NCBI GenBank assembly: GCA_029855935.1
Contig: JAGSHN010000016.1
Span: 128,001-192,000 of the forward strand
Source: Candidatus Thorarchaeota archaeon
GTDB taxonomy: Archaea; Asgardarchaeota; Thorarchaeia; Thorarchaeales; Thorarchaeaceae
Length of the DNA: 64,000 bases
Reading direction: 5' to 3'
Within the stretch, counting starts at the first letter, position 1; each line of letters begins with the position of its first letter. The translations under genes and the position numbers were made by a program. The notes below the pieces were generated by a model that was not told the origin of the DNA, made no database searches, and worked only from the letters and a program-made list of their open reading frames with translations. Shown one piece after another: positions 14,965-15,441 of the stretch.

Positions 14965-14977
14965 GACGCCAACAATG

Positions 14978-14985
14978 TTTATAGC
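14978..14985 (+). promoter_or_regulatory. Putative TATA box (TTTATAGC) for the 15025 gene
   Basis: AT-rich box in a GC-rich intergenic spacer about 40 bp upstream of the ATG. Confidence 0.45.
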
Positions 14986-15024
14986 ATCACCTCCCCTGCC
15001 AAGTGTGATAACGGGGCCTACGTC

Positions 15025-15441
15025 ATGAGCGAAGATGATGACTTCATCAAGGAAGAGTTCGAGTGGGCGCTGAAAGATCCCACAGAGGAGAAGCTCAGGA
15101 GCCTTGGTGAGGTGGTCAGCACCATCACCAAGAAGCTCGTCGAGGCGATAAGTGAGCTTCAGAATGATGTCTATCAGCTCCAGACACAGCTCCAGAGCCT
15201 GCAGTCCAAGATGAGCAGTCTTGAGAACAGGATGGCAACTGTGCGCGCTGCTCCGGCTGCGGCGGGCGGCGGTGCTGCTGCGAAGGCCCCGGAGGCAGCT
15301 CCGACCTCCGCACCGGCAGTTGCTGCAGCTGCTGCGCCCAAGGCACCTCCGCCACGTGCACCCTCCGGACCGATGGCTATGATGGGCGAGCTGAAGGCGC
15401 TCCTTGCAGCTCGGCGGAGAAAGGCCGAGGGTGGCGAGTGA
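15025..15441 (+). CDS. Coiled-coil protein with Ala/Pro-rich linker and C-terminal VASP-FAB/WASH-C-like basic amphipathic helix
   Basis: Heptad region 'ISELQNDVYQLQTQLQSLQSKMSSLENRM'; linker 'APKAPPPRAP'; C-terminus 'MMGELKALLAARRRKA'. Confidence 0.75.
   Translation: MSEDDDFIKEEFEWALKDPTEEKLRSLGEVVSTITKKLVEAISELQNDVYQLQTQLQSLQSKMSSLENRMATVRAAPAAAGGGAAAKAPEAAPTSAPAVAAAAAPKAPPPRAPSGPMAMMGELKALLAARRRKAEGGE

Follow-up and report, generated by a model that had tools for sequence, protein, structure and literature searches.

The stretch of DNA analysed here (the window: 64,000 nucleotides of contig JAGSHN010000016.1, positions 128,001 to 192,000, from a Candidatus Thorarchaeota archaeon) carries on its plus strand, at 15025-15441, an open reading frame (ORF) of 138 codons with an ATG start; translation of 15025-15438 yields a protein of 138 amino acids. 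The ORF is a genuine gene rather than a chance reading frame, as it has 166 homologues at E ≤ 0.01 and a two-branch profile of its family matches 333 of 400 sampled Asgard genomes. Asgard archaea possess a eukaryote-like actin that is used for protrusions and crawling (PMC13716822), and the actin regulators named in these organisms are profilins and gelsolins only (PMC12050087, PMC9433394). The 138-residue protein is built like a miniature proline-rich actin assembly factor, and its family is near-universal in Asgard archaea, confined to them and fused to a GTPase in some lineages. We are aware of neither a nucleator nor an elongation factor nor a membrane-to-actin tether in Asgard archaea; the comparisons presented here make the family a good but unproven candidate for this missing archaeal actin regulator.

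The original prediction, made from the DNA letters alone, described an acidic, tryptophan-containing N-terminus, a coiled coil, an Ala/Pro linker with the sequence PPPR and a C-terminal helix, and all of these elements are present in the translation and in an AlphaFold2 model (Table 1). The model, built from an alignment of 55 sequences and having a mean predicted local distance difference test score (pLDDT) of 75, comprises helices at residues 3-16, 19-74 and 116-135 and a disordered segment at 75-115. The N-terminus, MSEDDDFIKEEFEW, is acidic. In the long second helix, where pLDDT reaches 89-98 over residues 30-70, direct inspection reveals a heptad repeat that is unbroken over residues 38-70, with leucine at every d position (38, 45, 52, 59 and 66) and I42, V49, L56, M63 and M70 at the a positions. 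By leucine-zipper rules, this pattern suggests a parallel dimer, with a higher oligomer possible. The sequence of the arm varies among Thorarchaeota orthologues, apart from a conserved P108. Positions invariant in 40 Thorarchaeota sequences lie both in the head (E11, F12, W14, A15, L16, D18, P19, K23, L27 and G28) and in the tail (M120, E122, L123, K124, L127, A128, A129 and R130). Searches of NCBIfam and Pfam with the whole protein gave only sub-threshold coiled-coil matches, and those of Pfam that fall on the coiled-coil region are generic and all below cut-off.

Table 1. Features of the 138-residue protein gene and its upstream region (coordinates in the window)
Feature	Position	Strand	Basis
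Coding sequence, 138-residue protein, including stop codon	15025..15441	+	Translation, homologues, genome distribution
Head: acidic N-terminus and motif DFIxEEFEWALKDPTEEK, residues 1-23	15025..15093	+	Alignment and AlphaFold2
Long helix with heptad coiled coil, residues 19-74	15079..15246	+	AlphaFold2 and inspection
Disordered Ala/Pro/Gly arm, residues 75-115	15247..15369	+	AlphaFold2, pLDDT about 45-56
PPPR inside the arm, residues 108-111	15346-15357	+	Translation
Putative docking helix MMGELKALLAARRRKA, residues 119-134, followed by acidic end EGGE	15379..15426	+	AlphaFold2 and conservation
B recognition element (BRE)-like AACAATG followed by TATA box TTTATAGC (14978-14985)	14971..14985	+	Promoter element, 47 nt 5' of the ATG
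Purine/G-rich GGGGCC, putatively ribosome-binding-like, 7-12 nt before the ATG	15013..15018	+	Comparison of orthologue upstream regions

Nearly all of the close homologues come from Thorarchaeota metagenome-assembled genomes (MAGs). When 1.84 billion cluster representatives were searched exhaustively, more distant relatives of the same length with 33-41% identity came up, and a second search identified the distant same-length relatives as proteins of Lokiarchaeia/Promethearchaeia in which the four-part layout is kept. The 138-residue protein is 48-73% identical to its Thorarchaeota orthologues and 21-37% identical to members from Lokiarchaeia and other lineages. Among the high-quality genomes, 79 of 90 are matched by the two-branch profile, and strong matches amount to 81/85 in the Thorarchaeota family and to 131/135 and 14/14 in two Loki-type families. 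No family member from outside the Asgard archaea was found among the 1.84 billion representatives, the other matches being long proteins or proteins of unrelated length that aligned through the coiled-coil region. In its own genome, which is 97% complete, the gene is single-copy.

These proteins form a pan-Asgard family with the order head, coiled coil, proline arm and end helix. The 138-residue protein is a full member, with the same four-part layout and the tail pattern (M/I)MGELKxL(L/F)AxR(R/K), and its branch differs from the others in the arm and at one position of the head. The Loki relatives read EFxxFL...APLxEK at the head position, with phenylalanine where Thorarchaeota have W14, and have, immediately ahead of a tail that reads ...P(V/M)SLRGAIMGELKSLFAKRK, two to four GPPPPPG-like runs of 4-8 prolines; lineages other than Loki also have repeated GPPPPP-type runs just before the tail. 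Among Thorarchaeota orthologues the longest proline run is 3-4, and the 138-residue protein itself has only PPPR. In the Thorarchaeota branch, an Ala-rich arm has taken the place of the polyproline runs. Divergent members in four further families end in ...ELK(D/K/Q/E)(L/A)F(S/T/A)(R/K)(M/I)(R/K), and one ends in ARIKKGWDEDG, which is acidic and contains a tryptophan. A divergent member of 199 residues (L104:1225-1821 (-)) has VPPPTPATTS-type repeats and the end ...MELKEAFARIKKGWDEDG, in which a basic helix is followed by an acidic stretch with a tryptophan, an arrangement reminiscent of the C-A end of the WASP family.

A 2026 paper on Asgard crawling motility cites formins and Ena/VASP as known eukaryotic polymerases and does not name archaeal counterparts (PMC13716822). 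We found in the literature no description of the 138-residue family or of any Asgard VASP, WASP or formin-like factor. Since only profilins and gelsolins are named there as Asgard actin regulators, the family is undescribed in the available literature; its database entries, from MAGs of Thorarchaeota, Lokiarchaeia and Promethearchaeia, all read 'hypothetical protein'.

Conservation of the C-terminal helix across Asgard archaea had been proposed as a check on the original prediction, and it is high: over 200 tails, the residues of the core M-G-E-L-K-x-L-[LF]-A-x-R are conserved at 87-100% (M 97%, G 89%, E 99%, L 100%, K 99%, L 95%, L/F 99%, A 87%, R 99%). The helix is fixed on both of its faces, at E, K, G and R no less than at L and M, and therefore a specific protein partner is indicated. 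The hydrophobic moment of the tail is 0.29, compared with 0.41 and 0.61 for the membrane helices of MinD and FtsA, which together with the fixed faces favours a protein over a lipid as the partner. We accordingly regard as quite improbable the view that the tail, as a basic amphipathic helix, targets the membrane and anchors soluble heads there, including GTPases without lipid anchors, and that the protein is a membrane-attached coiled-coil tether. This view accounts for the C-terminal position behind a flexible linker, for the net charge of +3 to +4 and for a HeliQuest-type D factor of 1.26-1.59, and a membrane anchor would be sensible where the Arf-like and Sec23/24-like carriers described below have the helix, at the C-terminal end; in the Rab-like carrier, however, the motif is internal and not terminal. 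Not only the moment but also the mean hydrophobicity (0.16-0.27) is low in comparison with the MinD and FtsA targeting helices. Furthermore, lipid-binding helices conserve character rather than sequence, whereas the G, E, K and R of this tail are near-invariant across deep Asgard lineages.

The same pattern of conservation bears on a further alternative, namely that the protein is a generic structural coiled-coil protein whose basic end helix binds nucleic acid or no specific partner, any likeness to VASP being due to chance. The RRRK cluster could bind nucleic acid, the only profile matches are to generic coiled coils, and the resemblance to VASP discussed below is not significant genome-wide. 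Against this stand the extreme conservation of the non-basic M-G-E-L-K positions, the reuse of the helix on unrelated heads, the pan-Asgard distribution and the conserved promoter, and we consider this explanation very improbable.

Reuse of the helix became apparent when a tail-only profile was run over 101 high-quality genomes, where it matched longer proteins too. Arf/RagA-like GTPases of about 412 residues in Loki-type genomes (L095:1446-2681 (+) and L100:1097-2338 (+)) consist of an N-terminal region of unknown type, the Arf/RagA-like GTPase domain and a C-terminal family module. The fused module is complete, since hhalign matches the last ~90 residues of the Arf-like protein to almost all of the family profile, beginning at the head (probability 96.4%, E 1.2e-9). 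A Rab-like GTPase of 449 residues (L096:1684-3030 (+)) contains the tail as an internal helix, ...PVSLRGAIMSELKQIL, and a Sec23/24-like protein of 519 residues with a zinc finger, trunk/vWA and beta-sandwich (L097:84-1640 (+)) carries it near its end. As the whole module is found on Arf/RagA-like GTPases and the tail alone on the Rab-like GTPase and the Sec23/24-like protein, these sequences identify the tail as a portable docking peptide. The fusions came from the genome profile search, and a fusion to gelsolin was not found; no fused forms were retrieved with the Loki tail from a set of 5.8 billion proteins, which is weak evidence. In a Thorarchaeota genome, two neighbouring ORFs of 138 and 69 residues (L098:1809-2222 (-) and L098:1011-1217 (-)) have tail-like ends, AALMAELNAILAKRKEKME and ASLMQELKTVIEKRKQKME, on unrelated heads, and could be regulators or proteins of mobile elements in which the motif is used again.

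Because the tail sits on Rab-like, Arf-like and Sec23/24-like proteins, membrane binding and a partner in trafficking both have to be kept in play. In the latter case, the tail would dock on a conserved non-actin hub in the trafficking or GTPase machinery of Asgard archaea (for instance a regulator of the roadblock/longin type or a component of a coat or of ESCRT), and the protein would be a coiled-coil tether or scaffold unrelated to actin. The carriers just described, two of them GTPases (Arf/RagA-like and Rab-like) and one Sec23/24-like, fit this idea, and the conservation of both helix faces is compatible with any specific protein partner. Genomic context adds that a roadblock-like gene is the immediate neighbour of a family member in one lineage and that a paralogue with a similar head in the Thorarchaeota genome adjoins a small GTPase gene. 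In all seven Thorarchaeota loci compared, moreover, the gene order is Rab-like GTPase (~2.5 kb upstream), hydrolase, phosphoglucomutase, the 138-residue protein gene and then the LmbE/BshA/BshC cluster; the phosphoglucomutase-type gene always precedes the family gene and the cluster always follows it. This synteny, however, carries little functional information, because the whole block of ~15 kb is conserved in 7/7 loci. No candidate hub was identified, and the hub would leave unexplained both the polyproline runs and the likeness of the tail to the F-actin-binding (FAB) sequence of VASP. The tail also lies outside the MIM1 pattern: an ESCRT-III MIM1 tail was rejected on inspection, as MGELKxLLAARRRK does not fit the (D/E)xxLxxRLxxL(K/R) spacing, and there was no Snf7 match. 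A non-actin hub is a serious alternative that we nevertheless judge unlikely.

Human VASP has its FAB at residues 259-278, a G-actin-binding (GAB) segment at 223-239, a tetramerising coiled coil at 343-380 and a proline-rich region (PMC10340426), and the FAB sequence quoted in the original prediction agrees with residues 259-278. Between FAB and the archaeal tail, 10 of 15 core residues are identical with one gap, RRRKA included (BLOSUM62 local score 39), and the Gly run (GGGG) that precedes FAB is also present in many Thorarchaeota orthologues. When shuffled FAB was compared with the 138-residue protein, a score of 39 was reached in one of 5000 trials, and no other six-frame ORF of the genome matches FAB as well as the tail does, the runner-up scoring 34. 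As a pairwise resemblance this appears to be real, and in layout, too, the protein resembles the EVH2 part of Ena/VASP proteins, with a coiled coil that would oligomerise, a flexible stretch containing proline and a short helix with RRRKA at its end. The differences are substantial. Scanned against Pfam at E ≤ 10, the full-length protein gave no EVH1 (WH1) match but only coiled-coil-type ones, and VASP_tetra had no Pfam match, the coiled coil being N-terminal with an ordinary heptad, as opposed to the C-terminal right-handed tetramer motif of VASP. Neither a second helix nor a KLRK/LKKT sequence that could represent a GAB/KLRK G-actin site occurs between arm and tail, and GPPPPP-type profilin sites are not found in the 138-residue protein.

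With WH2/beta-thymosin peptides and the C helix of WAVE/WASH, the tail has in common a short amphipathic helix in which hydrophobic residues occupy i, i+3 and i+6/7 (M, L, L/F), followed by a basic cluster and then an acidic end. It differs from WH2 and VCA sequences in having neither LKK[TV] nor a tryptophan in the acidic end, which reads AEGGE. The WH2 (PF02205) and Thymosin models matched none of ten isolated tails from all branches at E ≤ 10, for which Pfam returned no match of any kind, and a PDB profile search with 34 tails returned no WH2/VCA chain, only a designed peptide at E 0.59. A WASP-family VCA was rejected: there is no V, the end contains no tryptophan and the C-like resemblance is by eye only. 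A Pfam match to CCDC53 (E 0.02, below cut-off) is a coiled-coil match. We know of no complete Arp2/3 complex established in Asgard archaea. These profile and motif comparisons place the 138-residue protein outside the Ena/VASP, WH2 and WASH families and do not support homology to them; in this respect the original prediction is not supported. As for the permuted modules of that prediction, the order is a permutation of that in VASP but agrees with that of WAVE/WASH, where an N-terminal coiled coil is followed by a Pro-rich region and a C-terminal helix. What is left, by analogy, is a likeness of design to eukaryotic actin factors: coiled coil, Pro-rich arm, short helix, basic cluster and acidic end.

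The closest archaeal precedent, again by analogy, is arcadin-2 of Pyrobaculum (PDB 5LY3), in which a conserved C-terminal helix, separated by a linker, binds on its own to crenactin's hydrophobic groove (PMC5173319). Both are small archaeal proteins with a short conserved C-terminal helix behind a linker. They have no sequence similarity, the binding of arcadin-2 needs a tryptophan that the tail of the 138-residue protein lacks, and the arcadin-2 gene lies beside crenactin in the arcade cluster, whereas the 138-residue protein gene is unlinked to actin.

The statement best supported by the sequences is that the protein would be an oligomeric adaptor that presents a conserved docking helix on flexible arms. 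If so, the small adaptor would pair through its N-terminal heptad coiled coil, and each chain would hold, on the far end of a flexible arm of ~40 residues rich in Ala and Pro, a near-invariant 16-residue helix with a basic end that would serve as docking peptide for one conserved Asgard partner. The leading candidate for that partner is actin or an actin-related protein, although we would put its chances at somewhat less than even. The helix might then occupy the hydrophobic groove of actin between subdomains 1 and 3, as the WH2, VASP FAB and arcadin-2 helices do, with the RRRK cluster contacting an acidic surface of actin. With at least two tails per particle, the protein could act as a filament-binding tether, a bundler or a barbed-end factor, and relatives with GPPPPP runs could in addition recruit profilin-actin.

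Actin is ranked first because of the parallels in design, the likeness of the tail to FAB, the polyproline runs that most lineages have, a distribution confined to Asgard archaea, the fusions to GTPases and the arcadin-2 precedent. Eukaryotic actin assembly factors are controlled by GTPases, and the fusion of the module to an Arf/RagA-like GTPase counts in favour of actin, as does a gelsolin-like gene near a family member in one lineage. Orthologues in archaea without actin would have spoken against the original prediction; a close actin was found in 46 of 46 sampled Asgard genomes, that of the 138-residue protein included. Polyproline motifs are common in Asgard proteomes, and the profilins of Thor and Heimdall lineages bind VASP polyproline weakly (PMC8410842).

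Several observations weigh against actin. In 7 of 45 trials, a shuffled FAB query scores at least 39 at some place in the genome, and for this reason the match to FAB has no significance by itself, the less so given the many motifs with which a reader could have compared the tail; common descent of tail and FAB is thus not supported. Neither Pfam nor PDB profiles provide statistical support for homology, and in the ESM Atlas only the family's own unnamed clusters were returned, no named cluster resembling the family. In the Thorarchaeota and Loki genomes for which both positions are listed, no family gene was seen adjoining or linked to an actin gene, and the Ena/VASP-like reading likewise gains nothing from linkage to actin or profilin genes, of which none was seen. 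That trafficking proteins of the Rab-like and Sec23/24-like kinds also carry the tail agrees with a membrane or trafficking hub no less than with actin. The proline content of the Thorarchaeota protein, limited to PPPR, is a further difficulty, and Loki profilins have been reported, as cited in PMC8410842, not to bind VASP polyproline. The Pfam profilin model matches nothing in the genome of the 138-residue protein; as this model may be too distant from archaeal profilins, no absence is concluded from this.

Taken as a whole, an oligomeric adaptor with a conserved docking helix and actin as its most likely partner is the best explanation we can offer, albeit a tentative one that we believe a little less readily than we doubt it. 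A bolder and, in our estimate, rather unlikely version is that the family represents the missing Asgard actin-assembly or tethering factor: GTPase-linked and oligomeric, with its invariant tail bound to Asgard actin, or to an actin-related protein, in the barbed-end groove and, in the lineages with GPPPPP runs, a proline arm that feeds in profilin-actin. Such a protein would be a functional, and possibly an evolutionary, forerunner of the WH2/VASP-FAB/WASP-C class. If actin binding is true, GTPase-linked regulation of actin by proline-arm proteins would predate eukaryogenesis; if the partner is another protein, a conserved docking motif and a hub among Asgard trafficking-type proteins would still have been identified. 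The 138-residue protein and its 16-residue peptide make a concrete and cheap test case.

Upstream of the gene, the element rACAAkSTTTATAGC (14971-14985 in the window; matching sites in L007-L035) is found in 27 of 29 Thorarchaeota orthologue loci, mostly 46-54 nt 5' of the start codon and in two cases at -31 and -38, and is far better conserved than the flanking intergenic DNA. In archaeal promoters, elements of this type direct transcription, and the remark in the original prediction that the gene has its own TATA box holds because the element is kept in these loci. The gene is therefore probably transcribed on its own, despite a gap of only 60 nt after the phosphoglucomutase-type gene. At a position equivalent to that of the purine-rich GGGGCC, 3' of the TATA element, most orthologue upstream regions have GGGG/GAGG-type runs.

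The surroundings differ in other lineages. In 11 of 11 Loki-type loci (L067, L069, L070, L072-L076 and L083-L085), an all-helical coiled-coil protein of 206-210 residues is encoded on the same strand 99-143 nt upstream of the family gene; the 206-residue protein belongs to no known family and has no similarity to the 138-residue family. Nearby lies a gene for a zinc-ribbon protein that is Elf1-like and has a long acidic extension. In another Asgard lineage (L004:5097-8081), the family member is flanked by a 216-residue coiled-coil protein, a roadblock-like protein and a 262-residue gelsolin-like protein. The gelsolin-like gene lies 0.9 kb downstream of the family member, beside the roadblock-like gene, and its product has a Lys-rich tail and matches the Pfam Gelsolin model at E 0.0018, below cut-off.

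The paralogue in the genome of the 138-residue protein is encoded on contig C16 (L088:949-1797 (-)). It is 282 residues long and combines a similar head, MAEQFLNKLNEIETKVQALGETLKRMITILGAI, and Ala/Pro-rich arms with a different C-terminal domain; its similarity to the family is weak (hhalign 34%), and its gene and that of the small GTPase are divergently oriented.
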